Of a stretch of DNA of 64,000 bases, positions 11,882 to 50,720 are shown piece after piece. Each line of letters starts with the position of its first letter. The first letter of the stretch is position 1. The notes under the pieces were generated by a model, which was not told where the DNA came from, did no database searches, and worked only from the letters and a program-made list of their open reading frames with translations. The stretch comes from a virus. The stretch covers positions 1-64,000 of IMG/VR virus record IMGVR_UViG_3300028800_000059. One strand, written 5' to 3'. The position numbers and the translations under genes are program-made.

Positions 11882-11904
11882 CCCTAGGCCACGAAAGCCT
11901 AGGG
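11869..11904 (+). promoter_or_regulatory. Predicted -1 programmed ribosomal frameshift signal
   Basis: Slippery T TTT TTC (11869-11875), 6-nt spacer, perfect 8-bp stem CCCTAGGC/GCCTAGGG; the -1 frame opens into gp51. Confidence 0.7.
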
Positions 11905-11931
11905 AATTACTATAAGACAAACTTTTCGTTA

Positions 11932-12075
11932 ATGTATCATCATAAATGGTCTTTGACAGAATTGGAAAATATGGTGCCGTGGGAACGGGATGTTTATATT
12001 GCACTGTTGATACAAAAAATAGAGGAAGAGACTAAACGAATGAAAGAACAAATTGCTGCTAAAGGAAAAGGATAA
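11932..12075 (+). CDS. gp51: Baseplate hub assembly catalyst, T4 gp51-like (homology extends upstream of this ATG)
   Basis: GHESLGNYYKTNFSLMYHHKWSLTELENMVPWERDVYIALL; missed by the ORF track. Confidence 0.8.
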   Translation: MYHHKWSLTELENMVPWERDVYIALLIQKIEEETKRMKEQIAAKGKG

Positions 12076-12081
12076 TAAATC

Positions 12082-14031
12082 GTGGCTTCACTTGCTTCAA
12101 TGATGACGGAAATATTGGCCGAAGAAGGCGACGTTAGTACCGGCGGCGCCTTGAAGCGAGCCATTGGCCAAAAAATGCGAAACTTCCGTAAAAGCATGGA
12201 AATGCAAAACATAGTTCACTCCATGACTGGCTCGGACCTTTTAGGAGTCATGACGGCCCGGGCGCTTGGGCGAGGTCCTCAGTCCATGCGACGTATGAGA
12301 TTTGGCCGTGACGAATGGGGCAATCCAATTAAATCAAGTTCGGCTGGCGGGAGAAAAGATGCCTTGAGTCCTAACAGCGATTATTATGATGTTCAAAGCA
12401 CCAGAGGCGGGGCCGCAAGAGGCGGGGCGCCGGATACCCCAACAAACAAAATTCTAAGACGAATTTATTCCGAAGTTCAACACACAAACATTCTTCAAAA
12501 GGCACAGCTTGGAGAAATGATGAAGGCGGATTATTTTGATTCGCTTACAAGAGAACACGATAAAGTAACTGAGGAAAATCAACAAGACCAAACACAAAAA
12601 TTTGATGATCTAATTCGTATCTTGGAACGAGGTCATGGTGGTGGTCAAGGTCATGGTGCCGGCATCGATGATATTCTTAAAGGATATCATCCAGGCACCG
12701 GCGGGGTATTGGGCAATCTGGCAACCGGCGCAGAAATAATGGCCGGGGCGGAAGCTGGTGGATGGATTTTAGGTGGATTAGGATTGATATTTCCTGCGTT
12801 AGGCTTCTTGGCAAGTTGGGGTATTCCCATCGCCGCCGCTGGTGATTTGATGTATCACTTTTTCGAAGATTACAGCAAGACCAAAGATGCCAAAAAATCT
12901 TGGACAAATGCATTACGAGGAACTACAACCGATATTCTCAAGGTTCTAGGATTTAGTCCTAAAACAATAAATGATAAATTGAATTACGGTGATATGGCAG
13001 CCAAGTATAATATGCCAAATCCAGACAAGGCCTATGGTGATGTGTATACAAATGGAATAACATACAAGAGTGCGGCAGAACGCGCCAAGGCTGTTGATGA
13101 TTTGAAAAAGAAATATCAACATGATTTGGATGTTGTAGATTCCATGACACCGGCAGAAAGAAATCCCTCTGTCACGAGAGGTATTAATCCTCAAATATAT
13201 CGCGCCGGCAAATCACCAGGACAATCAATTCCAACTCCTCCTGGTGTTACTACATTACCAGGATATGGAACACCCGGAACTTATCCGCCACCAGGATCAA
13301 ACATTGATTCATTAAATTTACAGCGGCTTCCTGCCGCTGGGAGTGCCCCACCAAAATCAACTGTAACACCATTAAGTGGAAATACAGACATTCCTCCAGA
13401 AGGCAAGGCTCTATTAAATAGTATTGCTGTTGGTGAATCTAAAGGTGCTTATGACGTTATCGTGGGTGGTACTAAATTTAACTCTTATGCCGAACATCCG
13501 GGCATTATTGATCCTGCGTTATACAAAAAAACTGGATTCAATTCCGATGCGGCTGGAAAATATCAGTTTCTTTCGACAACATGGAAATGGATTAAAGATA
13601 GATTGAAGTTAGCAGATTTTTCTCCTGAAAATCAAGACAAGGCTGCCTGGTTTCTAGCGCAAAGCGATTATCAAAAAAGAACAGGAAAAAATCTTTTGTC
13701 TTCCTTGAAACAGGGTGACACAATTGGAGTGGCAAATGCTTTATCTCCAACTTGGACTTCTTTGCCTGGAGGAAGTCAACCAAATAGTGCTACAAACGCA
13801 TTTCAAGCAAATTATGCTGCGGCCATTCCAACCGCACCAAATCAATTGGCGGCAGTCTATCATCAATCACAAGCCACTAACGATCAAATCAAAGGAACGC
13901 CGGCGCCGACAGCACCCGTAATTATTTCTAACAAGATCGATCAAAGTCGGAAACAATCAATCACTAATAATATGTCCGGTGGGGCTGATCCTTGGAATCC
14001 AGAAAACACCTCACGTCCTGATTTAGGATAA
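12082..14031 (+). CDS. Tape-measure/baseplate hub protein (gp29 position) with C-terminal lambda-type lysozyme domain
   Basis: Synteny after gp26/gp51; ALLNSIA.GES...Y...AAGKYQFL..TW...DFSPENQD.AA. Confidence 0.7.
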   Translation: MASLASMMTEILAEEGDVSTGGALKRAIGQKMRNFRKSMEMQNIVHSMTGSDLLGVMTARALGRGPQSMRRMRFGRDEWGNPIKSSSAGGRKDALSPNSDYYDVQSTRGGAARGGAPDTPTNKILRRIYSEVQHTNILQKAQLGEMMKADYFDSLTREHDKVTEENQQDQTQKFDDLIRILERGHGGGQGHGAGIDDILKGYHPGTGGVLGNLATGAEIMAGAEAGGWILGGLGLIFPALGFLASWGIPIAAAGDLMYHFFEDYSKTKDAKKSWTNALRGTTTDILKVLGFSPKTINDKLNYGDMAAKYNMPNPDKAYGDVYTNGITYKSAAERAKAVDDLKKKYQHDLDVVDSMTPAERNPSVTRGINPQIYRAGKSPGQSIPTPPGVTTLPGYGTPGTYPPPGSNIDSLNLQRLPAAGSAPPKSTVTPLSGNTDIPPEGKALLNSIAVGESKGAYDVIVGGTKFNSYAEHPGIIDPALYKKTGFNSDAAGKYQFLSTTWKWIKDRLKLADFSPENQDKAAWFLAQSDYQKRTGKNLLSSLKQGDTIGVANALSPTWTSLPGGSQPNSATNAFQANYAAAIPTAPNQLAAVYHQSQATNDQIKGTPAPTAPVIISNKIDQSRKQSITNNMSGGADPWNPENTSRPDLG

Positions 14032-17339: not shown

Positions 17340-17722
17340 TATCCTCTATTCTGTTGCCACGTCGAAGATCATACGCCTGGAAGTTTAGACTTTCCTTAGG
17401 CAGCCAAAGCTACTGGAGAGAAAGTCCGTGCCCGAAGTGGAAGTGGTTGCCCACTCTTTCGTGCCTTCACGGAAAAACGATTGTCTCGTTTTGCATTTAA
17501 CATTTTGAACAAATTTACGGTCGTATCTTACCGGTCAACTACCCTGATTTTATTCCACACGGATCGATCCTAGTTCTGTCCCACGAAACACACTGACTCT
17601 TTAGATCGCGAATCCTAATTTGGCTGAAATTAAAAGTATCAGTCTGCCAATGTGCTTGGTGGAACAGCCGGGAATTGCACCCGGGTCTCCAATGTCTTTA
17701 TGTCAGTATCAAACGCTGACGT
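17340..17722 (-). ncRNA. ssrA: Circularly permuted (two-piece) tmRNA
   Basis: Acceptor piece ends CCCGGCTGTTCCACCA at 17657; coding piece starts GGGACAG at 17582 (G3.U pair); tag ORF 17494-17396 ends VALAA*. Confidence 0.9.
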
Positions 17723-17740
17723 AGTATTTAGCATTATACA

Positions 17741-18448
17741 CTATCTATTTGGTAGGAACAAACACATTTTTGGGCTTTTTCCCTTCCAATGTTCAATTGC
17801 TTTCACAAGATTAATCACATGCCGTTTTGAAATGTCCTCCACGAATACCTGAGGTTCATGGTCAAACACGGCCACTAGAATAACAAGCTTTTTAGGATTC
17901 CATCCAGATCGTTCATGGAGCATTCGCTGATATGCGGTTGCTTGAATGAAATGACTCTCGACATATTCTGGTAACTTGGGCTTGCGAGCATTTTTGAAAT
18001 CGATGATAGCTTCGTCACCATCAAACGAACCGGCAACGTCCATCGTTCCAGCAATACCCAGTTGTTCGGAATAAACTGGAAGTTCAATTCCACGAATATC
18101 ATTGATACGATCTAATACAGGCTGCCATGCCTTGAATTGAATTATCTGGTCCGGCATTACTCCAGTGAGTGCCTGTTTGGCATCACCAGTAATCAAATAT
18201 TTTTCAGATATGGCATGGAGAGATTTGCCACGCGATGCCGAACTATTTTTGATCGTGTCGGCTGCCTTATCGCCAAGTCTCTGGCGCCATCTATCAAGAC
18301 CTCGGGAAGATTTGGCGCTTAAAATGGTCGTGATAGAAGGGAAAACAGTGGCGATGCCTGGGACTTGATAATAGTGGCCTTCGCCATATCCTTCAACAAG
18401 TTTAGGTCTGTCCCAGGTTATAGGGATAGGATCATGACGAAATATCAA
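17741..18448 (-). CDS. PD-(D/E)xK exonuclease (Cas4-like phage exonuclease)
   Basis: PSITTIL...W, RG..LH...E.YL, AGT.D, IIDFK, Q..AY. Confidence 0.8.
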   Translation of the reverse strand: MIFRHDPIPITWDRPKLVEGYGEGHYYQVPGIATVFPSITTILSAKSSRGLDRWRQRLGDKAADTIKNSSASRGKSLHAISEKYLITGDAKQALTGVMPDQIIQFKAWQPVLDRINDIRGIELPVYSEQLGIAGTMDVAGSFDGDEAIIDFKNARKPKLPEYVESHFIQATAYQRMLHERSGWNPKKLVILVAVFDHEPQVFVEDISKRHVINLVKAIEHWKGKSPKMCLFLPNR

Positions 18449-25392: not shown

Positions 25393-25795
25393 GGAAAACT
25401 CCTTACAAAGACTATCGATAGTATGCGCTTTTCTGGGTAAAAGTCCAAGAAAAATCTTTGTAATTTTATTGCGTGTTTTGAGGAATTTTGGCAACAAAAA
25501 AAGGACCCTAAAAAGGACCCTTTTTGATCGCGGGTGAAGACAGTTCTGGAAACCACTCCACCAAGAAAATAGAAAACGAGAAAACAAAAAAAGGGGAAGC
25601 ATCTTATGCCGGCTTCGATGCTTCGATGATGTTTTGGCGATTGCATGGACGGCGCCGTCGCCCATCTGGCGACTTGCAGACTTTCTCCACTGTGTAGAGA
25701 AAAACTCGCCGGATTGGCGAGGCTGCTAATAGTCTGATGCCTCACATTCGAAAATGTTTATCATCAGGGGCCAATGATAAATCATTGGCGTGGAT

Positions 25796-26613: not shown

Positions 26614-26691
26614 AACGTTAGAGCCCAGATTTGCACTGGTTAGCATCGCACTAGTAGCGATCCCCCGGCCGATGGCCAAGTGTTCCTCTAA
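26614..26691 (-). ncRNA. tRNA-like cloverleaf with central CUA in the anticodon loop
   Basis: ATCGC-TACTAGT-GCGAT arm, CCAG-TGCAAAT-CTGG T-arm, TTAGAG/CTCTAA acceptor; no encoded CCA. Confidence 0.45.
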
Positions 26692-26720
26692 TTTTCAACG
26701 ATACTCTAACACAAACTTTA

Positions 26721-27670
26721 TGGCGGGCGATGGACGTGGGAACGCTCCATCATTTCTCTCAAACGCGAATGAGAACCAGCCAATTGTTTTAGCCACGCAT
26801 CTTTTCAGATGGCCGTATGCAGCAATTCAATCTCGGTTTCTGTTGATTGGCGCGACATATAAAACCGTCCCTCATTTCAGACTTTCGGTCGGATAAGGCT
26901 AATTTTTAAAGGGCGACGGCTTCATAGCCGGTCTTTTAAATGTGAGGGGTTTTCACCCAACATCCCGTATTTTCATATCCCCGGCTGGTTCGCTAGTCCA
27001 GCACCTCCCGTCCCGTGACGGATGTTCTTATGCGATTAAACTACAGGAATTCTATAGGTGCCCCGGGTGCCCTTTCAGACACGATAGCTTGTCTTATTTG
27101 CGTAAGACTTCTATCCTCACTGGCCTGGCCCAGCCCTTTTTCGCAAAAATTAGGACAATATTCGGCCATCAGGATCAAGGACGTAAAGGCGCCCAGAGTT
27201 TTCTGGAGTTTCACCATGCGCCTCTGAGCGGGGCAATCTTTATATTTCTTTCGTCAGAACTGATTACTCATAGTGGAATTGCGCCACTACCTCCGGTTTT
27301 GTAACCGGCGTCCTCCTATTAGACTAATGAACTTCTACAGAGGTCTTGCAAGACACTCACGGCCACGATGGGCACTCAAAGAATCAGCCCTGACGAAAGA
27401 AATATTCCACAATGTAAGCGACAGAAAAGCGTCAGGCGGGCTTATACCGCAACATCAATCTTTATGCGAAGTTTGATGTTAGTGCAATTCGCTACTTACT
27501 CAATCACCTTGCAAGGAGTAATTTCTTTTCCCGATTTTGTTTTTGTTCGCCCTTTCGAGGAAACATGCCGGATCATTACCGGTCTCGATGGAATTTATAT
27601 CCCGCGCCACTCTACCGCGGTCAAAATTACTGATCGTGTAGACGCCTTCCTGACGTTTACATTGTGGTTT
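26721..27670 (-). ncRNA. Giant ornate ncRNA candidate (GOLLD/ROOL-like) with embedded tRNA-like domain
   Basis: No credible ORF; many GNRA hairpins and long-range helices; 24-bp stalk 27242-27265/27382-27405. Confidence 0.65.
27266..27332 (-). tRNA. Degenerate tRNA-Val(TAC)-like element inside the large RNA
   Basis: D-arm, CCGGT-TACAAA-ACCGG arm (6-nt loop), AGTGG-CGCAATT-CCACT T-arm. Confidence 0.4.
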
Positions 27671-27676: not shown

Positions 27677-27753
27677 TGGCCGGGGCGGCGGGATTTAAAC
27701 CCACGTCACCTTCCTTGAGAGGGAAGCATCCTAGATCGCTAGACGACGCCTCG
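27677..27753 (-). tRNA. tRNA-Glu(CTC)
   Basis: CTTCC-CTCTCAA-GGAAG; CCA. Confidence 0.85.
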
Positions 27754-27784: not shown

Positions 27785-28197
27785 ACAGCGGTAGTTTCTC
27801 TTTTCGCAATTACCGAACTTCTAAAGATAAGAGCCTGTGGCCCAGGTTTATCAAATAATTTACTTCGGTAACTGGGAAAAGAGAGGGACACACACATAGT
27901 CCCAACTCTTTCCTTTACTCTAAGGCGAACTAGCCACCCAGACTTGCTGTTCGCACCTGATGCCCCGGCTTTGCATTGGCATCTTTCCCTTGTTTCATTT
28001 TCTCTCCAGTGTCCCCAATGCCGGGGCTTAAAAATGAAAATGAAACAATCTTCAAATAACCTTTCACTTCGATGGGCTCATGCCCTCCATGAAAGGGTAA
28101 TTAGTTCTTAATGTGTTATTCTACATTTAATCCGAAGCGATTTTCTACCTAGTCATTTCACACCTTCCCTGTCTAGAAATTACCAACCGATTTAACT
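27785..28197 (-). ncRNA. Structured 5' leader/ncRNA of the RNA operon, with interleaved helices
   Basis: Hairpins plus crossing pairings 27962-27979/28015-28027 and 27990-28001/28037-28048. Confidence 0.5.
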
Positions 28198-28202: not shown

Positions 28203-28231
28203 AGTATATCAGAAACAAAAGTGGTATTCAA
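28203..28231 (-). promoter_or_regulatory. Sigma70 promoter driving the RNA operon
   Basis: TTGAAT-17-TATACT. Confidence 0.7.
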
Positions 28232-38613: not shown

Positions 38614-38688
38614 TGGTCGGACCACGGGGTGCTGCCCCCCGTCCCCCGGCTTGAAAGGCCAGTATTCTAGCTGGTAAACTATGATCCG
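38614..38688 (-). tRNA. tRNA-Glu(TTC)
   Basis: CTGGC-CTTTCAA-GCCGG; atypical T-loop GGCAGCA; CCA. Confidence 0.8.
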
Positions 38689-39074
38689 TAATGTTCCTTG
38701 CGATGGCAATTGGAACATAAAACCTCACATTTTGCAACTTCTTTCATCAAACGAGCCCAGCCATACCAAGTTAATTTATGGCCTATATTGAAATCTTTTT
38801 TTCCGTTAATATGATGAAAATCAAGACATGCTGGGTGATTTTCCCCGCATTTTACACAATTTAAAGTGGCTTTAAAGGCTCGCCACCTTTTTATTTTTTC
38901 TTTTTTCCTTAATCGAGTATCTTCAATATATTTAGATTTATTCTGTTGATAATGTGATTGATGATATTCCTTATTGCATTGAATACAATAAGCTTGTCTG
39001 TTTTTAGTAGGATGTATTCTAAAATTTTCTAGTGTTTTTGTCTGTTTACATCGATAACAAGTTTTTGTTTCCAT
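38679..39074 (-). CDS. HNH homing endonuclease
   Basis: KTCYRC...C..C; C.KCGENHPACLDFHH...KCEVLCSNCHRKEH; start METKTC. Confidence 0.8.
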   Translation of the reverse strand: METKTCYRCKQTKTLENFRIHPTKNRQAYCIQCNKEYHQSHYQQNKSKYIEDTRLRKKEKIKRWRAFKATLNCVKCGENHPACLDFHHINGKKDFNIGHKLTWYGWARLMKEVAKCEVLCSNCHRKEHYGS

Positions 39075-39326
39075 ACACGTATTTAGACTTTCAAAAAAGT
39101 CAAGAAGTGAAAACGAGAGAAGGACGCCGAAATTCTCGGGACGGTCTTTTAGAACCACGCTCTCTATTGCGGGTGTCCTTCGCTCTTTCAAACTCGGGGC
39201 GTTTTAAGCCCGCCCCGTAAGGCGTATGAGTATTTTGGGCTCCACTTCACTCCCTCAACTCACATAAAGTCTAGCACAGACCACACGAAATATGATTACG
39301 TTGTTTGTGCCGTTTTAGCAATTAAA

Positions 39327-39524
39327 TTACCCTTTGCAATGATGCTGATCGTGCTTTGATCCATTCACCGGGGTAGGGGCTTCATGATTTCCGCATGGAT
39401 GCCATGATGCAAACGCGCCTTCTGTAGTCGAACAATTATTCGGCCGACCATTATCAGCCGCAATTGCCATTCCAGAAAATCCCATGGCAACAATTAATGC
39501 CATACCTAAAATCAACTTATTCAT
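39327..39524 (-). CDS. Small secreted protein
   Basis: Signal peptide (AIA-AD), Cys residues. Confidence 0.55.
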   Translation of the reverse strand: MNKLILGMALIVAMGFSGMAIAADNGRPNNCSTTEGAFASWHPCGNHEAPTPVNGSKHDQHHCKG

Positions 39525-39614
39525 AACAAATTCCTTTCAAAGAAAAAATTCACATTGGCGAAATTGCCAATTCATCATTATATCACTTTAGAAAGGCAGT
39601 TACGAGAGCTAAAT

Positions 39615-39971
39615 TTAAGCGTCCAAAAGGGTAGTTACGATTGAGTAAAACAAACCATCTTTCAATTGCTGTTCTGCTGGCAAATCTTCGTATGGAACGA
39701 AACATGGATGTTCTTTCTTCTCCACGTCTTTCACGGAACCATATGTCCAACCGTCGGCTTCTTTATCTTTGAGCCAGTTATTGTGGCTCGCATCTGGGCC
39801 TGCGGAGAGATTTTCGGCTAGAAAATTCACCCCTGAGATACAAGAATTTTTCTGCCAATCTGGAGCCGAATCCCAATCGTTCTGAGAAAAATCTCCTAGC
39901 GATTCACAATAGGCTTTGTTGGCTTGATGGGCGATTTTTGCAATATCTTCGATTGTCATTTTAAATATCAC
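39615..39971 (-). CDS. Stand-alone RyR (ryanodine receptor repeat) domain protein
   Basis: A..AH...W...HNNW...K..DGW.YG..KD..KK.HPC.VPY..LP..Q..KD. Confidence 0.8.
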   Translation of the reverse strand: MIFKMTIEDIAKIAHQANKAYCESLGDFSQNDWDSAPDWQKNSCISGVNFLAENLSAGPDASHNNWLKDKEADGWTYGSVKDVEKKEHPCFVPYEDLPAEQQLKDGLFYSIVTTLLDA

Positions 39972-40059
39972 CTACGCCCTTAATGCCAATAGGCCGGCCG
40001 CCTTCAATAAAGATTGGAATGTAAGCAGGAAAATCTCTAATTCTCATTTTTATTTCTCC

Positions 40060-41004
40060 TTAGTTCAAAGTGTTAGTGTCTTCATTGCGGTTTCTTAGAT
40101 ACAAATCCCACTCGTGTTGAAGGTCTGGTTTGTTGCCAGCAAATTCATAAACACCATAGGAATTTCTCTTCAAATCATTATCGGGATTGAATTGATGTTT
40201 TACGAACATATCCCAACGGTCGATGTATTTTCTATCTGTCTTTCGGCCATGGAAGAAGTGTTCGATGGTGCCCCAAACAAATCCAATGTTTTTGTTAACA
40301 TGACGCAACGCCCGGGCTTCCCAACGCTTCAAGTGAGCCAAATATCCTTGTGTTACTCCACCGGGAACCGAACGGTCAACTTCACCGATCAAGGAAAGTG
40401 CCATATGATGATCTGCCGATCCCATTGCACAAATATCCAAAAGTCCGCCTAACCATTCTAAGGTAACTCGATTGGCTGCCCAACAGAATCCAGTGTGCGG
40501 ATAGGCATATGGTCCGCCGTCATGCTTCCAGAAATTCTTTTGATTAGGAATTACTGGTTGACGATTCCACCACTGATAGCAGAATGATTTATGTGCCTGG
40601 ATATGTTCATCGTTAGGGCCTAGATCGTAGGCATCTGTCCATGGTTGGACAATATCATATTGTTGAAGTGCGTGGACGGTATCCGCCGCCCATGAATTTT
40701 TTCTGAATTCGATATCGGCGTCACTCCAACAAATGTATTTCGCCTCTGGAATTCTTGCAATTCCGATGTTAAGCAAGTTTTCCTTATTCCATGTCTGTGT
40801 CTTGGCACGGACTGGAATATGATTGACGAATTTGTTGGTAGGGATAAGATCATGTGGACGTTCACCATATTGACATTCGACCACTGTCAGATTCACTCCA
40901 GAATCCAACATATGTTCCTCAAATTGTTTATAGAGATTTATTCGGGAGTCCCATCGGACAGGATTTGATATAGCAGTTACAACATGGAGCAATTCTGATT
41001 TCAT
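40060..41004 (-). CDS. GT-A fold glycosyltransferase-like protein
   Basis: WNKENLLNIG...KYI.W.DAD..F (DxD motif), G..H..HG...R.Y..RW. Confidence 0.65.
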   Translation of the reverse strand: MKSELLHVVTAISNPVRWDSRINLYKQFEEHMLDSGVNLTVVECQYGERPHDLIPTNKFVNHIPVRAKTQTWNKENLLNIGIARIPEAKYICWSDADIEFRKNSWAADTVHALQQYDIVQPWTDAYDLGPNDEHIQAHKSFCYQWWNRQPVIPNQKNFWKHDGGPYAYPHTGFCWAANRVTLEWLGGLLDICAMGSADHHMALSLIGEVDRSVPGGVTQGYLAHLKRWEARALRHVNKNIGFVWGTIEHFFHGRKTDRKYIDRWDMFVKHQFNPDNDLKRNSYGVYEFAGNKPDLQHEWDLYLRNRNEDTNTLN

Positions 41005-41023
41005 TTTTTTCCCTTTTCAAATA

Positions 41024-41098
41024 TGGTGCTTCCGTCTGGATTTGAACCAAATCCTTTCGCCTTATGAGGACGCCGTGCTGCCGTTACACCACAGAAGC
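41024..41098 (-). tRNA. tRNA(CAT), Met or Ile2
   Basis: Loop CTCATAA; canonical cloverleaf; CCA. Confidence 0.8.
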
Positions 41099-41126
41099 GG
41101 CACAACCATATTTAGTCGAAGGGAAA

Positions 41127-41582
41127 TCAGAAATCTAGAAATTTTGTGAATAATTTTCCAGCCAGTCCTAGGATGGGATTGAACAACATGACCCAATCCC
41201 AAATCTGTAACAATCTAGTTGCCAATACCACAAAAAATCCATTGATGCCAATTGTTACGACGACCGTAGGAAACCAAAACCCAGCCCTATAATCAGAATC
41301 ATCAGATTCACGTTTATCTTTGGCCCATTCACAATTCCACCATCGTTTCATTCCGATTTTCCAAAAAACAATCAGTCCAACCAGGCCCATCAATCCTAAG
41401 AAAATACTACTAGCAGCGTTCAATCGAAGAACCCACATAAAAGTATCGGCAATATCAGGACCGTATTTTATGGCTGCATCTTTCAAGAAACCACCTAAGT
41501 TTGCCATGGCATCTTGAATAGAATGTGAATTGCTAACCAAGGTACTAAGAATGTCTGTTGGTGTATTTGTTGGATCGGCCAT
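41127..41582 (-). CDS. Membrane protein
   Basis: Two or three TM segments. Confidence 0.55.
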   Translation of the reverse strand: MADPTNTPTDILSTLVSNSHSIQDAMANLGGFLKDAAIKYGPDIADTFMWVLRLNAASSIFLGLMGLVGLIVFWKIGMKRWWNCEWAKDKRESDDSDYRAGFWFPTVVVTIGINGFFVVLATRLLQIWDWVMLFNPILGLAGKLFTKFLDF

Positions 41583-41906
41583 TTATTGTAACTCCTCAGA
41601 TGAATATTTTTGCAATAAGACACAATTAATTCTGGCAATCATTTCCTTGCCTTTAGTTTTTTTTGGTTTGAATTCTTTGGCTCGCGACCAAATAAATCGT
41701 CTGTCTGTTCCAGATAATGTTGGAATATTGTGGTCTTTCAAACTCATTCGATCCAAGCATAATCCATAGGCACTGTTGGCTATCCATATAGATATTTGTG
41801 CCTTATGATGCTTCAAATTAAATCTGTCACATTCCCATCCTTTCGGATCATCTTCCAAAAGACACACAATCGCTTTGGCTAATTCCGACGGTCTAAAAAA
41901 CATCAT
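41583..41906 (-). CDS. Hypothetical protein
   Basis: ORF track; GGAG RBS. Confidence 0.55.
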   Translation of the reverse strand: MMFFRPSELAKAIVCLLEDDPKGWECDRFNLKHHKAQISIWIANSAYGLCLDRMSLKDHNIPTLSGTDRRFIWSRAKEFKPKKTKGKEMIARINCVLLQKYSSEELQ

Positions 41907-41925
41907 TATTCTCCATTAAAAAATC

Positions 41926-41978
41926 TGGGTCGAGGAAGGAATCGAACCTCCCAGCTAGGCCAGTCCAGACTTCGACCC
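41926..41978 (-). ncRNA. 53-nt mini-tRNA (acceptor stem plus T-arm, no full D or anticodon arm)
   Basis: GGGTCGA/TCGACCC-A acceptor; GGGAG-GTTCGATT-CCTTCC T-arm. Confidence 0.55.
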
Positions 41979-41985
41979 GCAAACT

Positions 41986-42081
41986 TTAGCCCTTGTGACG
42001 ATTCTTGCGACGTTCTTTGCGCTTGGTGCTGCCAATCTTGCGGCGACCTTTACGGGGGCGATTCTTATGCGGCCATGCCAA
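41986..42081 (-). CDS. Highly basic 31-aa peptide
   Basis: GGAG RBS, TTG start; MAWPHKNRPRKGRRKIGSTKRKERRKNRHKG. Confidence 0.6.
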   Translation of the reverse strand: MAWPHKNRPRKGRRKIGSTKRKERRKNRHKG

Positions 42082-42098
42082 GATGATTTCTCCAATTA

Positions 42099-42106
42099 TA
42101 TAAATA
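42099..42106 (+). promoter_or_regulatory. T4 late promoter for the inserted endonuclease
   Basis: TATAAATA exact. Confidence 0.7.
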
Positions 42107-42142
42107 CTCTACCCCAATAAGAAACCAAATGAGGAGATTGGT

Positions 42143-42820
42143 ATGATCATAGAAAACAAATATTCAAAGTGGTATTACTCTATCATAAAGAAGGCGGTAA
42201 TACAAGAAAGAAAAAGACTATCGAGAGAATCTGGTAAATACATCTATTATGAAAAACATCATATTTTACCTAAATGTCTTGATGGTAGTAATGAAGCAAT
42301 CAATCTTGTTTTGCTTACTGGTAAGGAACATTTTATTTGTCATTTATTGCTTCCTAAAATGGTGAATAATTTGGGAGAAAAAGCAAAATTGATAAATGCG
42401 TTGATTAAAATGGTTTTCGCAAAATCAAAAGGACAAAAAAGATATACATCCAAATCTTATGAATTAATTCGTAAAATGATTGCAGAAAAAAATAGCATTA
42501 TGTTTAAAGGAAAAAAGAAATCATTACAAATGAGAAAAAGATTATCTAAGACCAGAACGGGAATGAAATTTTCTGAATCGCATCGTAAAAATCTTGGTAT
42601 AGCTAATAGTAAAAGAATAGGAGAAAAAAATCCCTTTTTTGGAAAACATCATACAAAAAAATCAATGGATAAAAGAACTGCTACTAGAAAAAAGAATGGA
42701 TGGCCCGGTAAAGTTAGCACTAAAGGATATAAATGGTATAATGATGGAAATATTGAAAGTATTTCCAAAATTCCTATTTTTGGATGGAAGCCAGGACGTA
42801 TTGGTTGGAAAAAATCTTAA
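42143..42820 (+). CDS. HNH/NUMOD3 homing endonuclease (MobE-like)
   Basis: Y..WY..II..A...YEKHHILPKCLDGSN...NLV.LT.KEHFICH.LL; SESHR, NPFFGKHH repeats; opposite strand to its neighbours. Confidence 0.85.
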   Translation: MIIENKYSKWYYSIIKKAVIQERKRLSRESGKYIYYEKHHILPKCLDGSNEAINLVLLTGKEHFICHLLLPKMVNNLGEKAKLINALIKMVFAKSKGQKRYTSKSYELIRKMIAEKNSIMFKGKKKSLQMRKRLSKTRTGMKFSESHRKNLGIANSKRIGEKNPFFGKHHTKKSMDKRTATRKKNGWPGKVSTKGYKWYNDGNIESISKIPIFGWKPGRIGWKKS

Positions 42821-43092
42821 AATTCGTCGCCAAATCCACCGGCAACATTTTCTAGATATTCTGCAAGAGCATCATAGCCGCCGATGTATTGAGCATGTTG
42901 ACCATCAGGATTTGTGAAAATCTGTGGTACTAATTTCTTGTCGGTGTATTCTTCAATGATCTTATAAAATTCTCGGACAGAAATATCTCGCCCAATCACA
43001 ACTTCCCTGTAGATATGTCCAAGTCTCTTTAAAAGTTCCTTGGCCTTTTCGCACCAGGAACAATTCGGTTGTGTGTAAATGGTGAATTTCAT
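42817..43092 (-). CDS. Glutaredoxin
   Basis: CSWC active site, VPQIF, IGGYD.L. Confidence 0.9.
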   Translation of the reverse strand: MKFTIYTQPNCSWCEKAKELLKRLGHIYREVVIGRDISVREFYKIIEEYTDKKLVPQIFTNPDGQHAQYIGGYDALAEYLENVAGGFGDEF

Positions 43093-43334
43093 GGTCGTAT
43101 TACCGGGTAAGAACCATATTGAACAAACGCATCGTTACATGCCTGTTTTAATTCTGGCGTAAAATTCGAATTGTATTCATACACGTTGTATTTTTTGCAT
43201 AGATTGTATGTTCTATATAAGGTTTCTAATTTTGGGTCTTTATAGGTTGGTCCCTGGGCAGCGAGAAATAACAAAACAAAAATCTCGACAACAAAAGATA
43301 ATATCAAACCAACAAGAATATGTGATTGTTTCAT
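43089..43334 (-). CDS. Small membrane-anchored protein
   Basis: N-terminal TM. Confidence 0.5.
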   Translation of the reverse strand: MKQSHILVGLILSFVVEIFVLLFLAAQGPTYKDPKLETLYRTYNLCKKYNVYEYNSNFTPELKQACNDAFVQYGSYPVIRP

Positions 43335-44551
43335 TATTGCAACTCCGTTGTTTCGCCTTTTCGCATCAGATAGGCGTCATTGATACTCTTGACAATTACG
43401 CGATGATGATAACGATTCTTGCGCCCAGAAAGATGTTCGATGGCCGGCTTGATAACAATGCCTTCGCGAATATGAACATTAAATCCAATCTCGGTATTGC
43501 CGGAGGTATACATATCTAACACGATTTTGGAATATGGACCTGTATAAAGAACCGGAACACTAGGCAAATCAAAATATTTCAAATTTCCAAACAACGTCGC
43601 AAAATCCATGAAGGTGCCATTGGCGATTGTTTCGTCCCAACAGTAAATATCAAACACACGAAATTCTGGTTTGTCCAAATCATAATGTAGGTCCTGAATG
43701 CCGCGCCCGGCAATTTCGCCACATACAATGAATGAGCCGCCCATGAAATCACGTAAAAATTCTAATTTTTCCTTATGTTCTTTGAAGGCTCGCGTATAGA
43801 CGTTATCAGTCTTTTCCAGGTCAAACACGTAACCCTTGGCACCTAGACCCTTCGACGCAACGTACCAGCCCTTGTCAGGATGATAGCCAATCTGACAGAA
43901 GGTGCCGTGAAGTTTCTCGGTCATAACAACTTCCTCGCCTTCTTCAAAGGCGTCTGGCCAAGACTTGATATTGTCGATATCGTAATTCAACGTATAGCCA
44001 AAGAAATCGCCGCGAACAACTCCCTGCATAGAACCTGGAATTGGTGGTTCGTATTTCGTGATACCTAGAACTTCGGCAACATCATCGCCTTCTTCGACCA
44101 TCACGTCCTGAGTATATTCACCATTTCTGTCCTTTGTGAAAAAAGGATCACCTTCCAGAACTGACGTGGGCAAAGGAATGTTCTTGATCCAATTTTCTTC
44201 CCAAGACCCACCAGATTCAGAATGTTCCTCGGTGACAACTGGAACCAAGATGCCCTGTGAAACAACGCCACGAAGGCGGATGGCCTTGACGCGATTGTAT
44301 CCAGCGCCAGAAAGCATACCACGATTGGTTGACTCGTCCCAGAAACCCTGGCTTTTCAGAAGCCATTCCGGCACAAGTGAAGCTTCTGGAACATAGGCGA
44401 CAAGATCACCTACTTTATATCGTGGTGAACCATCTTCAAGTTTGCCAGAAATACAGGTCCATCCTCGTACAGTCACGAGAGAAAGCCTGTCGGCATTTGG
44501 ATGATTTTCTACCGCATCGACGCGGACGATTGGAACTTCAAAGTGAGACAT
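43334..44551 (-). CDS. RNA ligase, DRB0094/Rnl5 family
   Basis: HPNADRL, RVKAIRLRG.VSQG, TEKLHGT (motif I), GEI.G.GIQ, FDI, REG.VIK, KSI...YL. Confidence 0.85.
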   Translation of the reverse strand: MSHFEVPIVRVDAVENHPNADRLSLVTVRGWTCISGKLEDGSPRYKVGDLVAYVPEASLVPEWLLKSQGFWDESTNRGMLSGAGYNRVKAIRLRGVVSQGILVPVVTEEHSESGGSWEENWIKNIPLPTSVLEGDPFFTKDRNGEYTQDVMVEEGDDVAEVLGITKYEPPIPGSMQGVVRGDFFGYTLNYDIDNIKSWPDAFEEGEEVVMTEKLHGTFCQIGYHPDKGWYVASKGLGAKGYVFDLEKTDNVYTRAFKEHKEKLEFLRDFMGGSFIVCGEIAGRGIQDLHYDLDKPEFRVFDIYCWDETIANGTFMDFATLFGNLKYFDLPSVPVLYTGPYSKIVLDMYTSGNTEIGFNVHIREGIVIKPAIEHLSGRKNRYHHRVIVKSINDAYLMRKGETTELQ

Positions 44552-44855
44552 TATATTTTTTCCTACATGTAATATAAATGCTGGACGCTACCAGGCCCGC
44601 AACTAGAGTAAGTATCGTTAATCCTATTGTAGTTAAAACTCCACAGGCATAAAAAGAAGGTGTATCTTCGACTCTAAATTGATTTGGTGTATTCAACAAC
44701 CAAAGCACGAACATTCCAAGATAATAAAATCCCCATACACAATAAGAAATAAAGAATGTTCCTAGTGTCACCATTATACCAGGAATTGCGACATACCAAG
44801 GAAGTTTACCTACAAAACATAATTTCTTCAACATGAATATATCTCCCATTTTCAA
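44538..44855 (-). CDS. Membrane protein
   Basis: Hydrophobic helices. Confidence 0.5.
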   Translation of the reverse strand: MKMGDIFMLKKLCFVGKLPWYVAIPGIMVTLGTFFISYCVWGFYYLGMFVLWLLNTPNQFRVEDTPSFYACGVLTTIGLTILTLVAGLVASSIYITCRKKYNVSL

Positions 44856-44860
44856 AAAAT

Positions 44861-44935
44861 TGGCTCCAGGCTCAGGTTTCGAACCTGTCTCTCGAAATTC
44901 AGAGTTTCGCGTTCTACCGAATAAACTATCCTGGA
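44861..44935 (-). tRNA. tRNA-Gln(CTG)
   Basis: CGAAA-CTCTGAA-TTTCG; CCA. Confidence 0.85.
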
Positions 44936-44958
44936 ATAAAAATATTTAGACTGTCGGA

Positions 44959-45216
44959 TCAAATCAAATCAGGATCGTTTTCTGGTCCGATTTTCATTCT
45001 GAAACCTGGACCTCCACGAGCCGCCATATCAACAAACATCTTAAATTTGTCGAAGGCGTTTTTTAAACCAAATTCTTTATCCACGCCTTCCATCAACACA
45101 AACTGAAATCCTGCCGGCACGGAATAAAAATATGTCGAATCATCTGGACGAACTCTGGAAAAAAGCGTCCAGGTTCCTAGAGTTTCAATATTTGTGTCGG
45201 TGTTTGTTTCAGTCAT
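44959..45216 (-). CDS. Hypothetical protein
   Basis: ORF track; AAGGAG RBS. Confidence 0.55.
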   Translation of the reverse strand: MTETNTDTNIETLGTWTLFSRVRPDDSTYFYSVPAGFQFVLMEGVDKEFGLKNAFDKFKMFVDMAARGGPGFRMKIGPENDPDLI

Positions 45217-45237
45217 TTTTTTCTCCTTGTTAAAAAC

Positions 45238-45327
45238 TGGTGCCTTGAGGAGGACTTGCGCCTCTCGTCTACTACCCCATTTGTTTAATGACAGCGGAGT
45301 TACAGGCCGCCAACGGGAACTCTCGGC
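45238..45327 (-). tRNA. tRNA-Tyr(GTA), divergent
   Basis: Loop CTGTAAC; long variable arm; weak D-arm and acceptor stem; T-loop GCGCAAG. Confidence 0.65.
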
Positions 45328-45671
45328 ATTTTAGTGAATCGGAACAACAGAATATGTTGCAGTACCTAACACAAGCAATGTCAATGCAGCACCTAAAATC
45401 ATACCAATAAACACGGCAATCAACACATGTAATTTAGTAAACATTAATTCTGCCTTTTCAAAAAATAGGATGTGAAGTCCACACTCGGCAACAATTTGCC
45501 CAGGTACATAATACAGTTCCTAATAGTATCATAGTCCAGAATAATATCCAAATGATTTTTTTGAACATGATGAATTTGGCGGAAAGTTGTGTTCCTGCCA
45601 CACACTCCTTTTTCAGGAGCCATTCGTTTAGCAAACGATGATGGGGCCTCGCCCACTTAACTTTCCAATAA

Positions 45672-45761
45672 TGGCGGGCAGCCGAGGTATCGATCCCCAA
45701 ACCTTTTTCAGATTCCAGCCGCTTTCGAGGCGGTGGCTTGCGCCAGCAAACTTGACTACCC
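45672..45761 (-). tRNA. tRNA-Ser(CGA)
   Basis: CCGC-CTCGAAA-GCGG; long variable arm; G73. Confidence 0.8.
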
Positions 45762-45770
45762 TTAAAAAAA

Positions 45771-45858
45771 TGGCGGAGTTCGGAGGTCTTGATCCCCAAT
45801 CGATTTCTCGGTCGTTGCGCTTTCCAGGCGAACCTGATCCCTGACCAGTTCAAACTCC
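45771..45858 (-). tRNA. tRNA-Ser(GGA)
   Basis: Loop CTGGAAA; long variable arm; G73. Confidence 0.8.
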
Positions 45859-45875
45859 TAAATTCTATTTTCTAT

Positions 45876-46082
45876 TTAGTACCAAAATCTTCTATATTCC
45901 CAGGCCCAATAATCATGATCCCAACAATCATTTTTAAACCATCTTCTTTCAACCCATTCAAACCAACGACAATCATGATAGCCTAGACGAACAGGATACC
46001 AGGCAAACCATCGATGCCATTCCTGTGAGGCCAGATATTTTTTATATCGCCAATCACTGAATTTATCACAATTGAATCTCAT
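45876..46082 (-). CDS. Trp-rich small phage protein
   Basis: WHRWFAWYPV...WFEWVERR; paralogue at 56594. Confidence 0.6.
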   Translation of the reverse strand: MRFNCDKFSDWRYKKYLASQEWHRWFAWYPVRLGYHDCRWFEWVERRWFKNDCWDHDYWAWEYRRFWY

Positions 46083-46248
46083 ACTCCATAATCCTCTGTC
46101 GAATCATGAAATTCCTTCTCGGACATTTCTCGACACGAAATTATCCTCTTGCTGATTTCCTCGTTAATCAACTGACGAATTTGTTCCCAAAGTGCCGGAG
46201 ACATACTTGTTGCATAATCATTAGAAGCTGTCGGTGCGCCACTATCCA

Positions 46249-46782
46249 TTATAATCCCGGCGTCAAAAGTCTGTTGATAATCTTGGCAGCATCTTCCAAA
46301 TTATCTACTCGGTGCGAAGCCTGTCCACGAATAAAGGCGTGGTCATTTGGATTGCCTTCTTTTTCCATGATAATCACAATAGGCTTTTGCAGCAACCAAG
46401 CCCATGAAACTTCCCCACCCATTCCAATTGATCGTGCCTTGGCTCCAAGATAATTCATGACAAGAGCATCGGATTGTTTCACGTCATTGAAGTCCTGGCG
46501 AACAATGCCATCGTCCGTCGTCATAGGATTGTCGTCATAACACTTGGTCGTAATTACCATTCCATTATTCACTTCGCCGTCGTCATATCCGCGCAATGGT
46601 GAATAGGCGTGAATATGTGGCAGAAGCAATTTCTTGAAACCTGGCTGCCACGACCAACGAGCCTGTTCAATTGTCAGGTCTGTAATTATGGTACCTAGAT
46701 AGATTTGTCTAGGTAGATAAGTTTGTCTGACAAAATCACCATATTGGATGCTTCTAAAATCATCATGATCATTAATATGCAT
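46249..46782 (-). CDS. Nucleoside 2-deoxyribosyltransferase-like protein
   Basis: YSPLRG...D..DV..SD.LV.N...SIG...EV..A....KPIV; start MHIND. Confidence 0.7.
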   Translation of the reverse strand: MHINDHDDFRSIQYGDFVRQTYLPRQIYLGTIITDLTIEQARWSWQPGFKKLLLPHIHAYSPLRGYDDGEVNNGMVITTKCYDDNPMTTDDGIVRQDFNDVKQSDALVMNYLGAKARSIGMGGEVSWAWLLQKPIVIIMEKEGNPNDHAFIRGQASHRVDNLEDAAKIINRLLTPGL

Positions 46783-46783
46783 T

Positions 46784-47020
46784 TTAATACACATCTCCAT
46801 TCTCTTGAATTTTTGTGTCTTCATAAGGCGCGGCTACACGGCGATAAAATTCCTGTTTGGCGCCTTCAAGAGCGCCAACAATATCATTGATCGTTTGATA
46901 TTTTAATCCTTTGACTTTCAAATATTCCAGACATTTCATTGTTAGGTGATAATTCAAATCACCTGCCTCACTGGCAAATCCAATAGGAAGTCCTCTTCGT
47001 TCCTCTTTCACATATGGCAT
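46784..47020 (-). CDS. DUF6899-like conserved phage protein
   Basis: MPYVK..R...GDLNY.LT...Y..IN...GALE.AK.EFYRR..APYED.KI.ENGDVY. Confidence 0.7.
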   Translation of the reverse strand: MPYVKEERRGLPIGFASEAGDLNYHLTMKCLEYLKVKGLKYQTINDIVGALEGAKQEFYRRVAAPYEDTKIQENGDVY

Positions 47021-47023
47021 ATT

Positions 47024-47278
47024 TTAATTCTCCAAAGCTTTTATGTGTGGCATGTCCACTTCTTTAATTTTGTATTGAAATTTACAAACAGTAACGTTTT
47101 GGGATTTAAAATGCCTAATCAAAGCTGAGGCCATTTCACAACCACCATTAACATCGGAAGTATCATATTTGAAAACTACATATTTCTTGGTATGTTTGAA
47201 GAACCAACCTGTCGGTAAAGGTGCAGGTCCTGCACCTTCTATACGACTGACCCAGATTTTGAACTGAAAATATTGCAT
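47024..47278 (-). CDS. Hypothetical protein
   Basis: ORF track. Confidence 0.5.
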   Translation of the reverse strand: MQYFQFKIWVSRIEGAGPAPLPTGWFFKHTKKYVVFKYDTSDVNGGCEMASALIRHFKSQNVTVCKFQYKIKEVDMPHIKALEN

Positions 47279-47318
47279 ATTCCTTCAATTATAAAGAATG
47301 ACGGCGGCAATGTCAAGA

Positions 47319-47393
47319 TGGTAGTCCCTGTTGGGATCGAACCAACTACCTCCACCGTGTCGAGGTGGCATTCTACCGGTGAACTAAGGGACT
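47319..47393 (-). tRNA. tRNA-Val(GAC)
   Basis: CCACC-TCGACAC-GGTGG; CCA. Confidence 0.85.
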
Positions 47394-47665
47394 TCGTTTG
47401 CAATCCTCAGAAGTGTTTCGCCATGGCAACGTTTCGGATGACACCAACAAACAAGGTCTTTGCCGGCAAGGTCTTTCTTGGCTTTTTTTATGACGCCTGG
47501 AAAATGTTTAATCCAGTTTTCAAATTGATCGCATACCATATTTCGTTCATTCTCATTTTCCATTTTGAACATATTTCCCCAAAATGTGGTCCGATCAATC
47601 AGAACGGCATCCTTAGGAATATTCTTATCAATTCGTTTGTTATAGAGACGTGGGAACAGAGACAT
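47384..47665 (-). CDS. DUF4326 domain protein
   Basis: IDR...WGN.F...R..VC..FE...L.GKDLVCWCHPKRCHGE.L...AN. Confidence 0.8.
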   Translation of the reverse strand: MSLFPRLYNKRIDKNIPKDAVLIDRTTFWGNMFKMENENERNMVCDQFENWIKHFPGVIKKAKKDLAGKDLVCWCHPKRCHGETLLRIANEVP

Positions 47666-47872
47666 TTTTCTTTCCTTTATTCCAAGGAATAATTTTCTTT
47701 AATTTCTCTAAGGTTTCGACCGAATACACTCCAGTTTTTCCTTTATTCCAAGGCGTGCGTCCTTTCATTTTTTTAGAATGAGATATCCGTCGGCAAGATC
47801 GTTTGTTTTATGAGACCCAACATAAACCTTGCCATTCTTTACGTTGGTCGTTTTATAGATGATAAAATACAT
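47660..47872 (-). pseudogene. Collapsed GIY-YIG (Seg-like) homing endonuclease
   Basis: MYFIIYKTTNVKNGKVYVGSHKT..L.DGYL then a stop; two PWNKG NUMOD remnants (17-bp direct repeat 47671-47687/47737-47753). Confidence 0.7.
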
Positions 47873-48056
47873 GCGAAAATTTCCTGCATGTATTTAGTCA
47901 CCTCTATGTACCCAATGACGGTACTTCCCCGCCTTCTCCGCCATGTAAGGGCGGCGTCTTAATTTCTGAACCCATCGGGCTTTATTCCAATTGGTAGACC
48001 GTGGGAATTCTGCCATCCCGACTTCCAAATTAAGAGTTTGGCACTCTGCTTCTGAG

Positions 48057-48413
48057 TTAACGGTCCTTATTTCTTTTATTTGCGTCACTTCGATATTTTT
48101 TTATTTCCAATTCAATATTGGGATCAAATCGTTTATAATTTTTTGGTATAGTGACCAAACCCGCATGATATTCTATATGACAATTGAAACACAATAAAAC
48201 ACATTTTTTAATTTCTTCGGAAACCCTTTCCCAACTCATGGTATTGGAAGTTCCTAAGGCAAACTTCTTTTGTTTAGGATCAATATGATGAAAAGTTAAT
48301 GCTTCAATGCTTTTATCATATCCACATATTTGACAACAATCGCCCATGGCTCTCACCATTCTTGATTTTTGTCGTTTTCTAAAACTTCTTACCCTACCAG
48401 AATTTATAGACAT
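48057..48413 (-). CDS. HNH homing endonuclease
   Basis: C.ICGY...ALTFHHIDP..K.F...W...E..KC.LLC.NCH.E.H. Confidence 0.8.
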   Translation of the reverse strand: MSINSGRVRSFRKRQKSRMVRAMGDCCQICGYDKSIEALTFHHIDPKQKKFALGTSNTMSWERVSEEIKKCVLLCFNCHIEYHAGLVTIPKNYKRFDPNIELEIKKYRSDANKRNKDR

Positions 48414-48454
48414 TGCTAAATTAACCTCTAAGGTTATTTAGCAATGTTTAGGCT

Positions 48455-48733
48455 TTATTCCTGCAAAAGCTTGATCTTCTTTTCCTTCTTGGCCTTCTTA
48501 TTGGCCTTGCGAGTCTTTTCATATTTTTCAAAGGCAGCATCAATCATTTTCTGCATTTGCTTTAGAAGTTCTTTCTTGTCGTCGGTGCTGCAATCCGGTT
48601 CACCATTGACCTTATCGAGCACTTTGGCGGCATCGATAAGTTTTTTATAATCCCTCCAATCTGGATAGGTATATTCTTTTAATGGCCAGTGTTCATCGAA
48701 AGGTCTCTGTATCATTGCACTCATTACACACAT
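48455..48733 (-). CDS. Hypothetical protein
   Basis: MC..S...L...A...D...G.PDC...K phage motif. Confidence 0.55.
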   Translation of the reverse strand: MCVMSAMIQRPFDEHWPLKEYTYPDWRDYKKLIDAAKVLDKVNGEPDCSTDDKKELLKQMQKMIDAAFEKYEKTRKANKKAKKEKKIKLLQE

Positions 48734-48755
48734 CTATTTTTCTCCCTTAAAAAAT

Positions 48756-48830
48756 TGGTAGGCCGTGAGAATTTCGAAATCTCGACACCGGGGTTAAAAG
48801 TCCCGCGCTCTGCCTCTGAGCTAACGGCCT
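48756..48830 (-). tRNA. tRNA-Lys(TTT)
   Basis: CGGGA-CTTTTAA-CCCCG; CCA. Confidence 0.9.
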
Positions 48831-48836
48831 ATGTTT

Positions 48837-49652
48837 TTAAATCTCAATCACCATTCCAGGATTAAACTTTAGATTTTCCTGGTAGTGGGCATATCCTCTA
48901 GGGTTACAAATTACCCGCGTTGTATTTATCATATAATCGTAATTATCATGGGTGTGACCATGAAACCACAACTTTACATTTGGACTCATCAAAGACTCTA
49001 AATTCGAAGAATACGCTCCATTTGTAATAAATTCAGTTTTGAATCTTGGATGCGTCGATTGCTTCGAAGGCGACATATGAGTAAACACGATCACTTTAAG
49101 CTGTGCAAATTCCTTGATTTTTTCTTCCAACCAAGCCCGTGAAGTCTTGTGAAGTTCATAGGCATCTTCTGGCTGGAAAGTTTTCCCTGGAACACTCTGC
49201 ATAATCTGGTAGTCATTTAGTTCATATTTGATTTGATGTAATGTGGTTGGATCGCCTTCATTGAAATCAGTCCATAACGTTGCACCAAGAAATACATACT
49301 CAGGAAATTTTCCAATCCATAGATGTTCATTTTCCATGATACGAACATTAGGATAATCCTTTAGAAATTCGCTGATGTTAGGTCTTGCATCGCGAACATT
49401 ATATCCATAGGCTTCATGATTACCAAAACAATACAGGATGTTTTCATATTTCTTGCTGGCGGCATCAAAAAATGCCGCAACATTCTTTTTATGGGCGCGA
49501 GATTCCTTATCGGTACGCGCCTCACTCAAATATTTGGCAACGCAAATATCTCCAGGCAAAAGCAACACGTCGGCATCTGGAAGTCCCTTGATTAATTCAT
49601 CAATTCCACCTGGAAATTCCAAATGTAAATCTGACATTTCTGCAATTCGCAT
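48837..49652 (-). CDS. Calcineurin-like metallophosphoesterase
   Basis: SDLHLE, L.GDI, GNHE.Y, TLWTDF, THM.PS, W.HGHTH, CNPRGY. Confidence 0.85.
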   Translation of the reverse strand: MRIAEMSDLHLEFPGGIDELIKGLPDADVLLLPGDICVAKYLSEARTDKESRAHKKNVAAFFDAASKKYENILYCFGNHEAYGYNVRDARPNISEFLKDYPNVRIMENEHLWIGKFPEYVFLGATLWTDFNEGDPTTLHQIKYELNDYQIMQSVPGKTFQPEDAYELHKTSRAWLEEKIKEFAQLKVIVFTHMSPSKQSTHPRFKTEFITNGAYSSNLESLMSPNVKLWFHGHTHDNYDYMINTTRVICNPRGYAHYQENLKFNPGMVIEI

Positions 49653-49806
49653 ATCAACTCCTAACTTCATTGTATTCTCATGATTTCTTCCAATTAGCAA
49701 CAAAACAAGACATTTTTTTCAAATCAGGTCCTAATGCAATCGCTGCCAATAAAAATGCCTGATACAGCTTTGTTTCTAGTTCTTTCATTTGTTATCCTTC
49801 AAAAAA

Positions 49807-49881
49807 TGGCGATCTATCCGGGAGTTGAACCCGGCTTTTCCGCTAGACAGGCGGGCGTAATAGCCGATATACCAATAGACC
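49807..49881 (-). tRNA. tRNA-Asp(GTC)
   Basis: CCGC-CTGTCTA-GCGG; G73. Confidence 0.85.
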
Positions 49882-49918
49882 ATTCTATCACAAAATCACA
49901 ATCAATCCAAGCAAAAAA

Positions 49919-49993
49919 TGGTGCCGTGGTGTGGTGCTGCCCCACAATCTGGCCCTTACCAAAGGCCCGTTTTACTGTTGATACTACCTCGGC
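49919..49993 (-). tRNA. tRNA-Thr(GGT)
   Basis: GGCCT-TTGGTAA-GGGCC; T-loop GGCAGCA. Confidence 0.8.
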
Positions 49994-49998
49994 AAATT

Positions 49999-50072
49999 TG
50001 GTGCCAGAGCAAGGAATTGAACCCTGATAAGTTGATTACGAATCAACCGTAATGCCTTTATACGACACTGGC
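49999..50072 (-). tRNA. tRNA-Thr(CGT)
   Basis: GTTGA-TTCGTAA-TCAAC. Confidence 0.85.
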
Positions 50073-50139
50073 AATTATATCTTCCTGGCGTCGAGAGTTT
50101 CCCGCATATGTCCCCGTAGCGACAACACCAGTAGGATTT

Positions 50140-50214
50140 TGGGGTGAATGGAGAATTACGATATCTCGATTAGACCTTCACAGGGTCGCGTGTTTCCTCT
50201 ACACTACATTCACC
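50140..50214 (-). tRNA. tRNA-His(GTG) with G-1:C73
   Basis: GACC-CTGTGAA-GGTC; extra 5' G opposite C73. Confidence 0.85.
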
Positions 50215-50225
50215 ATAATCTCTTT

Positions 50226-50303
50226 TGGTCCCTCTGATTGGACTTGCACCAATCTTTTTAGCCTTATGAGGGCTCGACACACCTATCTCTGTCTCACAGA
50301 GGA
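50226..50303 (-). tRNA. tRNA(CAT), Met or Ile2
   Basis: AGCC-CTCATAA-GGCT; T-loop TGCAAGT. Confidence 0.75.
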
Positions 50304-50625: not shown

Positions 50626-50720
50626 ATTATTTTTTCAATAATTTAACAACCTGATAGATTGTAATACAAACTATCAAAACAATTACAGGCACATATTGCA
50701 TAATTTTTCTCCTCTAAAAA

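Follow-up and report, generated by a model that had tools for sequence, protein, structure and literature searches.

A 950-nt segment in a tRNA operon of an uncultured T4-like phage (positions 26721–27670 of the window, i.e., of the whole 64,000-nt stretch of DNA analysed here) is supported as a real, uncatalogued structured RNA region that carries a tRNA-like module on a long stalk. Computation delimited its modules and revealed two long closing stems, a mimic derived from tRNA-Val, and a third block rich in GNRA hairpins. Our preferred reading, to which we assign a probability of roughly 0.45, is that of a modular precursor: host RNase III would cleave its long stems and thereby set free two orphan RNAs and a decoy that displays a tRNA elbow but cannot decode. 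This reading, like every functional one considered below, is inferred from a single sequence.

The segment lies within a phage RNA operon

The first-pass annotation had assigned the DNA to a T4-like phage, and gp23 bore this out. The record comprises 177,318 nt, of which the window is the first 64 kb, and its copy in ENA is identical to the sequence analysed. Since the permuted tmRNA of the phage scores on the alphaproteobacterial as well as the permuted model, the host is probably an alphaproteobacterium. The tag of this tmRNA (17340–17775) is unusually long and basic.

On the minus strand, an ORF-free stretch of about 2.5 kb extends from a promoter candidate to a terminator candidate (Table 1) and holds, in order, a structured leader, tRNA-Glu(CTC), the 950-nt segment, a CUA tRNA-like element, tRNA-Ala, three more structured units, and tRNA-Gly, -Met, and -Trp. 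The CUA element has a 7-bp acceptor stem, a CUA-centred loop, and an enlarged D region, and is without CCA. The operon leader (27785–28197) folds locally more strongly than any other part of the region, with z as low as −6.7; a homologue of it was not found. As the first-pass annotation had stated, the segment itself contains no credible ORF: a 116-aa antisense ORF called in the ENA record gave weak partial matches only, the best being to a repeat protein, and the remaining ORFs matched no protein family.

Table 1 Features of the RNA operon and of the 950-nt segment, listed in the direction of transcription (window coordinates)
Feature	Position	Strand	Remarks
Sigma-70-type promoter candidate, extended −10, at the head of the operon	28203–28231	−	Consensus match only
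tRNA-Glu(CTC)	27677–27753	−	3′ end 9 nt ahead of block I
Block I, 261 nt	27407–27667	−	Closing stem 27667–27641/27433–27407 around a 207-nt multibranch interior
Block II	27242–27405	−	Uninterrupted 24-bp stalk 27405–27382/27265–27242, 1 nt from block I
48-nt insert between stalk and tRNA mimic	27334–27381	−	Two small hairpins, one a 12-nt palindrome (27354–27343)
tRNA-Val(UAC)-derived mimic (D, anticodon, and T arms)	27264–27333	−	3′ end continues into the 3′ strand of the stalk
Block III, multibranch region of ~520 nt	26721–27241	−	GNRA hairpins 27149–27136, 27082–27067, 26958–26947, 26811–26798
3′ arm of candidate long-range pseudoknot	26842–26863	−	Partner 27615–27594; blocks I and III
Terminal three-way junction ending in CCA	26721–26782	−	z −2.8; CCA itself paired in the predicted fold
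CUA tRNA-like element, unit after block III	26618–26710	−	Enlarged D region 26695–26671
Intrinsic terminator candidate after tRNA-Trp (operon end)	25705–25721	−	

Folding is concentrated in two stems and a set of GNRA hairpins

The region as a whole folds better than its shuffles (z −4.4), with helices favouring the minus strand, and the four long-range helices and three GNRA hairpins described in the first-pass annotation are all present, as is the CCA in which the segment ends (26723–26721), a putative 3′ end. The accompanying description of dense pairing was overstated, since the signal is concentrated: strong helices (−10 kcal/mol) number 42 in the region vs. 39 in shuffles, and 120-nt windows across it are mostly weaker than z −2. 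What exceeds the shuffles is contributed by the two long stems and, in block III, by the GNRA hairpins.

The first of these stems closes block I. Its 11-bp and 12-bp helices are joined by a mostly paired 4×4 loop into a quasi-continuous helix of 27 bp; the block scores z −5.0, while its interior alone is unremarkable (z −0.2). A 7-bp helix proposed earlier (27430–27436/27649–27655) does pair as described. It represents, however, an alternative register excluded by the 12-bp helix 27652–27641/27433–27422, with pairing probabilities of 0.00 and 1.00, respectively. Both strands of the stem show an 11-nt periodicity—one helical turn—which accounts for the alternative register.

The second stem, the stalk of block II, was likewise recovered as annotated, with 22 Watson–Crick pairs and two G·U pairs. 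Because the latter exist only on the minus strand, they identify the strand of the RNA. A search of the 177-kb genome (span ≤600 nt) found no other uninterrupted helix as long as this 24-bp stalk, the next longest, like the shuffle maximum, having 17 bp; block II scores z −7.7 on the minus and −5.9 on the plus strand. One 7-nt box is common to the block I stem (27655–27649) and the stalk (27395–27389), lying 10–12 bp from the stem base, a similar height for which a hand count gives a chance of roughly 0.04. In addition, blocks I and II have one 8-nt palindrome in common (p = 0.04, uncorrected).

Overall folding of block III is weak (z −2.2) and its internal fold ambiguous. What distinguishes it are GNRA hairpins of at least 4 bp: four occur, all on the minus strand, where 0.44 would be expected (p = 0.003), a number that equals the genome-wide maximum for 950-nt windows. 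Forcing all four costs merely 4.7 kcal/mol, which leaves the long-range helices of this block uncertain. Among these, the previously noted 8-bp helix 26808–26815/27163–27170 is present, but it shares 26808–26811 with the GAAA hairpin 26798–26811, so that the two are mutually exclusive.

A tRNA-Val-derived mimic that keeps the elbow

The cloverleaf borne by the stalk scored 36.3 bits on the Rfam tRNA model, above the 29-bit cut-off, and all four arms are recognisable. In the first-pass annotation it figured as tRNA-Val(TAC)-like. The Val label stands as ancestry, since, among the tRNAs of the compared phage loci, the closest match comes from phage record L155, a tRNA-Val(TAC) whose T-loop is recoded; the anticodon does not, as the 5-bp anticodon stem is closed by a loop of 6 nt, with no TAC at positions 34–36. 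There is, moreover, an A1–A72 mismatch and no CCA, and the mimic thus lacks both the 7-nt anticodon loop and the free CCA end of a functional tRNA. As encoded, it can neither decode nor be charged. Its D- and T-loops permit G19–C56 and are compatible with the A18/G55 register that several tRNAs of the same phage show. Folded alone, the mimic scores z −1.0, and in context forming its acceptor stem rather than an extended stalk costs 6.8 kcal/mol when tertiary contacts are left out of the calculation.

A separate, intact tRNA-Val(TAC) is encoded near 47,910–47,980. We considered an antisense role of the segment's 3′ end against this tRNA and rejected it: the pairing was strong relative to shuffles, but foreign tRNAs reached equal energies over the whole RNA.

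The blocks as modules of a proposed precursor

When the surrounding operon was folded, the segment was predicted to form three independent blocks, with 84 (I), 56 (II), and 144 (III) expected base pairs inside them vs. 0.0 (I–II), 0.6 (I–III), and 0.0 (II–III) between them, and with no helix joining the 5′ and 3′ ends. This near-zero pairing between blocks and the missing end-joining helix, together with the shared 7-nt box and the length of the stalk, support the modular reading, as do the neighbouring positions of the two helices, both longer than two turns and each marking off one domain of a tRNA transcript. RNase III processing stems flank rRNAs and occur in T7 early RNA; the present stems resemble them as long-range helices of at least two turns that close a domain within a polycistronic precursor, and differ in enclosing orphan RNAs and a tRNA mimic, and in that their cleavage is putative. 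The primary RNase III determinant is a helix of two or more turns (PMC1540722), and the stems measure 24 and 27 bp. Such processing stems are further characterised by permissive proximal and distal boxes and by cuts with 2-nt 3′ overhangs.

The segment would accordingly be one portion of a 2.5-kb polycistronic transcript of tRNAs and small RNAs, comprising three separately folded modules. Host RNase E and RNase P may free it while maturing the flanking tRNAs, and host RNase III might then cut the 27-bp and 24-bp stems as it does those flanking rRNA, to yield an RNA of ~230 nt from block I, a stem-capped tRNA mimic of ~140 nt from block II, and an RNA of ~520 nt from block III. Any such processing would fall to the host, as genes for RNase III, Ro60, and a CCA enzyme were not found in the phage (the Ro60 search with working controls). 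For the released mimic, which keeps the elbow but cannot decode or be charged, the simplest role we can guess at is that of a decoy, conceivably one for host defence proteins that cleave or sense tRNAs. This guess is consistent with the tRNA-repair-type genes near the segment, namely an RNA ligase, a kinase, and a HAD phosphatase downstream and a second RNA ligase upstream. If the modular reading is true, the phage offers a clean case of rRNA-style processing stems releasing a tRNA decoy.

Against it we counted the gaps between blocks of just 1 and 7 nt, the 6.8 kcal/mol cost of the acceptor stem, and two cross-block complementarities with p = 0.02. One of these is the candidate I–III pseudoknot (27615–27594/26863–26842), a 22-nt complementarity of −23.3 kcal/mol (p = 0.02, uncorrected, one of eight tests), both arms of which have local partners as well. 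In the other, the D region of the CUA element (26695–26671) can pair with 27170–27146 in block III (p = 0.02, uncorrected, among the eight tests, and p ~0.05 in another comparison). Both are too weak to decide between a precursor and a single RNA.

Possible alternatives: one large RNA or a decayed cassette

The closest rival reading, not far behind in probability, takes the whole 950 nt as a single multi-domain RNA of a new class. Such an RNA would combine a GOLLD-like layout (5′ domain, embedded tRNA, 3′ domain) with unrelated sequence; its stems would stack to a rod of ~50 bp, blocks I and III would join in a pseudoknot, GNRA loops would dock in helices, and palindromic loops could drive self-assembly, GOLLD being an RNA that assembles into an RNA-only cage. 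The segment starts 9 nt past tRNA-Glu, agrees in size and order with tRNA-containing phage GOLLDs, and has a 1-nt linker between its stems; the enrichment of GNRA hairpins and the palindrome shared by blocks I and II point the same way, and the candidate pseudoknot does so weakly. Yet the blocks fold independently, the pseudoknot arms have local alternatives, the p-values are uncorrected, no homologue was found, and a perfect 24-bp helix would lie exposed to RNase III. Only slightly less probable is the fuller version of this proposal, a new giant phage RNA class converging on the GOLLD layout in which a rigid arm would show the tRNA elbow, the pseudoknot would lock the 5′ and 3′ domains, and the palindromes might permit self-assembly.

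How far the likeness to GOLLD goes can be stated in terms of architecture. Like GOLLD, the segment lies in a phage tRNA cluster directly behind a tRNA, falls within 800–1000 nt (the GOLLD minimum being at least 800 nt), and has a tRNA, optional in GOLLD, between its 5′ and 3′ parts. The GOLLD tRNA, however, sits in a single-stranded linker ~350 nt from the 3′ end (10.1101/2024.12.08.627333; PMC12990946), whereas here a broken mimic is held by a 24-bp helix at a distance of ~540 nt from the 3′ end, and sequence, motifs, and models do not match. Judged from these comparisons, the resemblance is one of layout only. The functions of GOLLD, ROOL, and their embedded tRNAs are open questions, and a sequence-unrelated RNA with this layout, if the segment is one, would speak for convergent selection for a tRNA shape on a large scaffold. 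The reach of either reading is limited, as the phage is uncultured and the segment a singleton. At 11900–12790 of phage record L155 (complete, 181 kb) lies a GOLLD RNA in which a tRNA-His-like sequence is embedded.

We regard it as unlikely that the segment is a partly decayed cassette, in which selection would act on the stems and perhaps block III, the mimic would be a dying tRNA-Val pseudogene, and the interior of block I mere spacer. The poor folding of that interior and of the isolated mimic, the broken anticodon loop, the orphan status of the segment, and the intact tRNA-Val(TAC) elsewhere in the genome would all fit such decay. They are set against four tRNA arms that still pair, a perfect stalk, strand-specific GNRA hairpins, and a G+C content of 47%, which exceeds both that of the genome (42%) and that of the intergenic stretch upstream (27%).

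Comparison with known RNA families

Still more improbable is a catalytic RNA—a group I or II intron or an RNase P RNA—too diverged for Rfam. Its size, its GNRA loops, and a few short motifs that look alike by eye are reminiscent of such RNAs, but the Rfam models for introns, RNase P, and OLE, proposed as a check in the first-pass annotation, gave no match at E ≤ 10 or E ≤ 1 in a comparison whose positive controls were GOLLD and ROOL only, no split tRNA exons flank the segment, and neither the P4 core of RNase P nor the P7/J8-7 core of group I introns could be built by inspection.

Membership in GOLLD or ROOL, as the first-pass annotation had suggested, is refuted, and even a highly diverged member is the least probable of all explanations despite the similar context, size, and embedded tRNA and the frequency of GOLLD in alphaproteobacterial phages: the GOLLD model RF02032 (conserved 3′ domain) gave no match at E ≤ 10 while six controls scored 151–216 bits, a full-length profile built from eight phage GOLLDs missed the segment while all leave-one-out controls matched (E ≤ 3e-19), none of nine GOLLD hallmark motifs is present, and the ROOL model RF03087 found nothing while its control, pMP118, reached 130 bits. 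ROOL is similar in being a large structured phage RNA close to tRNA islands, and differs in its length of ~580 nt and in that the literature consulted describes no embedded tRNA for it.

Among smaller RNAs, T4 RNA C and RNA D are small stable RNAs of phage tRNA clusters. Like them, the segment is a non-tRNA unit predicted to be co-transcribed with tRNAs in a T4-like phage, but it is much larger and has no sequence match to annotated phages. The bacterial Y RNAs YrlA and Yrn1 carry a tRNA-like D/T domain on a long stem and occur in phages, and in the model of Deinococcus Yrn1 the anticodon stem has 5 bp and its loop 6 nt (PMC4201824). The segment shares this design down to the 6-nt loop; it differs in that the phage lacks a Ro60/TROVE gene, that neither the GNCGAAN0-1G motif nor a bulged Ro-binding helix is present (the stalk has no bulge), and that the arms of the mimic follow the order of an ordinary tRNA rather than that of YrlA. 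The Y RNA models of Rfam did not match.

Homologue searches and other features of the phage tRNA repertoire

The first-pass annotation had proposed collecting homologues from related phages to look for covariation, by which ornate RNA classes are defined; the search for homologues yielded none. Searches by blastn found no homologue in GenBank phages and plasmids or in 81 phage records picked by RNA ligase, gp23, or recoded tRNA-Glu, nor did nhmmer in 2.85 Mb of phage loci or three single-sequence covariance models in 62–80 records (two of them also in 0.9 Mb of loci). Exact and gapped patterns run against IMG/VR, metagenomes, and GTDB genomes returned only matches judged on inspection to be chance. 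Searches of these kinds miss distant relatives, and their outcome is no proof of absence. The phage itself lacks a close relative in the collections: identity to the best relative is at most 52–53% for RNA ligase, 54% for PhoH, and 78% for gp23, and the adjacent ORF is a singleton.

Elsewhere in the operon, the structured unit at ~26392–26240 can pair over 15 nt with the D-stem/anticodon arm of the downstream tRNA-Gly(TCC) (26314–26300/26061–26047, minus strand). The predicted energy of −26.2 kcal/mol was reached by none of 300 shuffles, and the best among 121 foreign tRNAs came to −19.3; the unit may serve to mask a phage tRNA or to control it in antisense. Further along the window, in 38614–54137, lie at least seven tRNA genes whose T-loops are recoded; ARAGORN misses all of these, and Rfam most. 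A tRNA-Glu(TTC) with the same recoded T-loop was present in ~30 IMG/VR phage records, arguing that this type of tRNA is widespread in phages.
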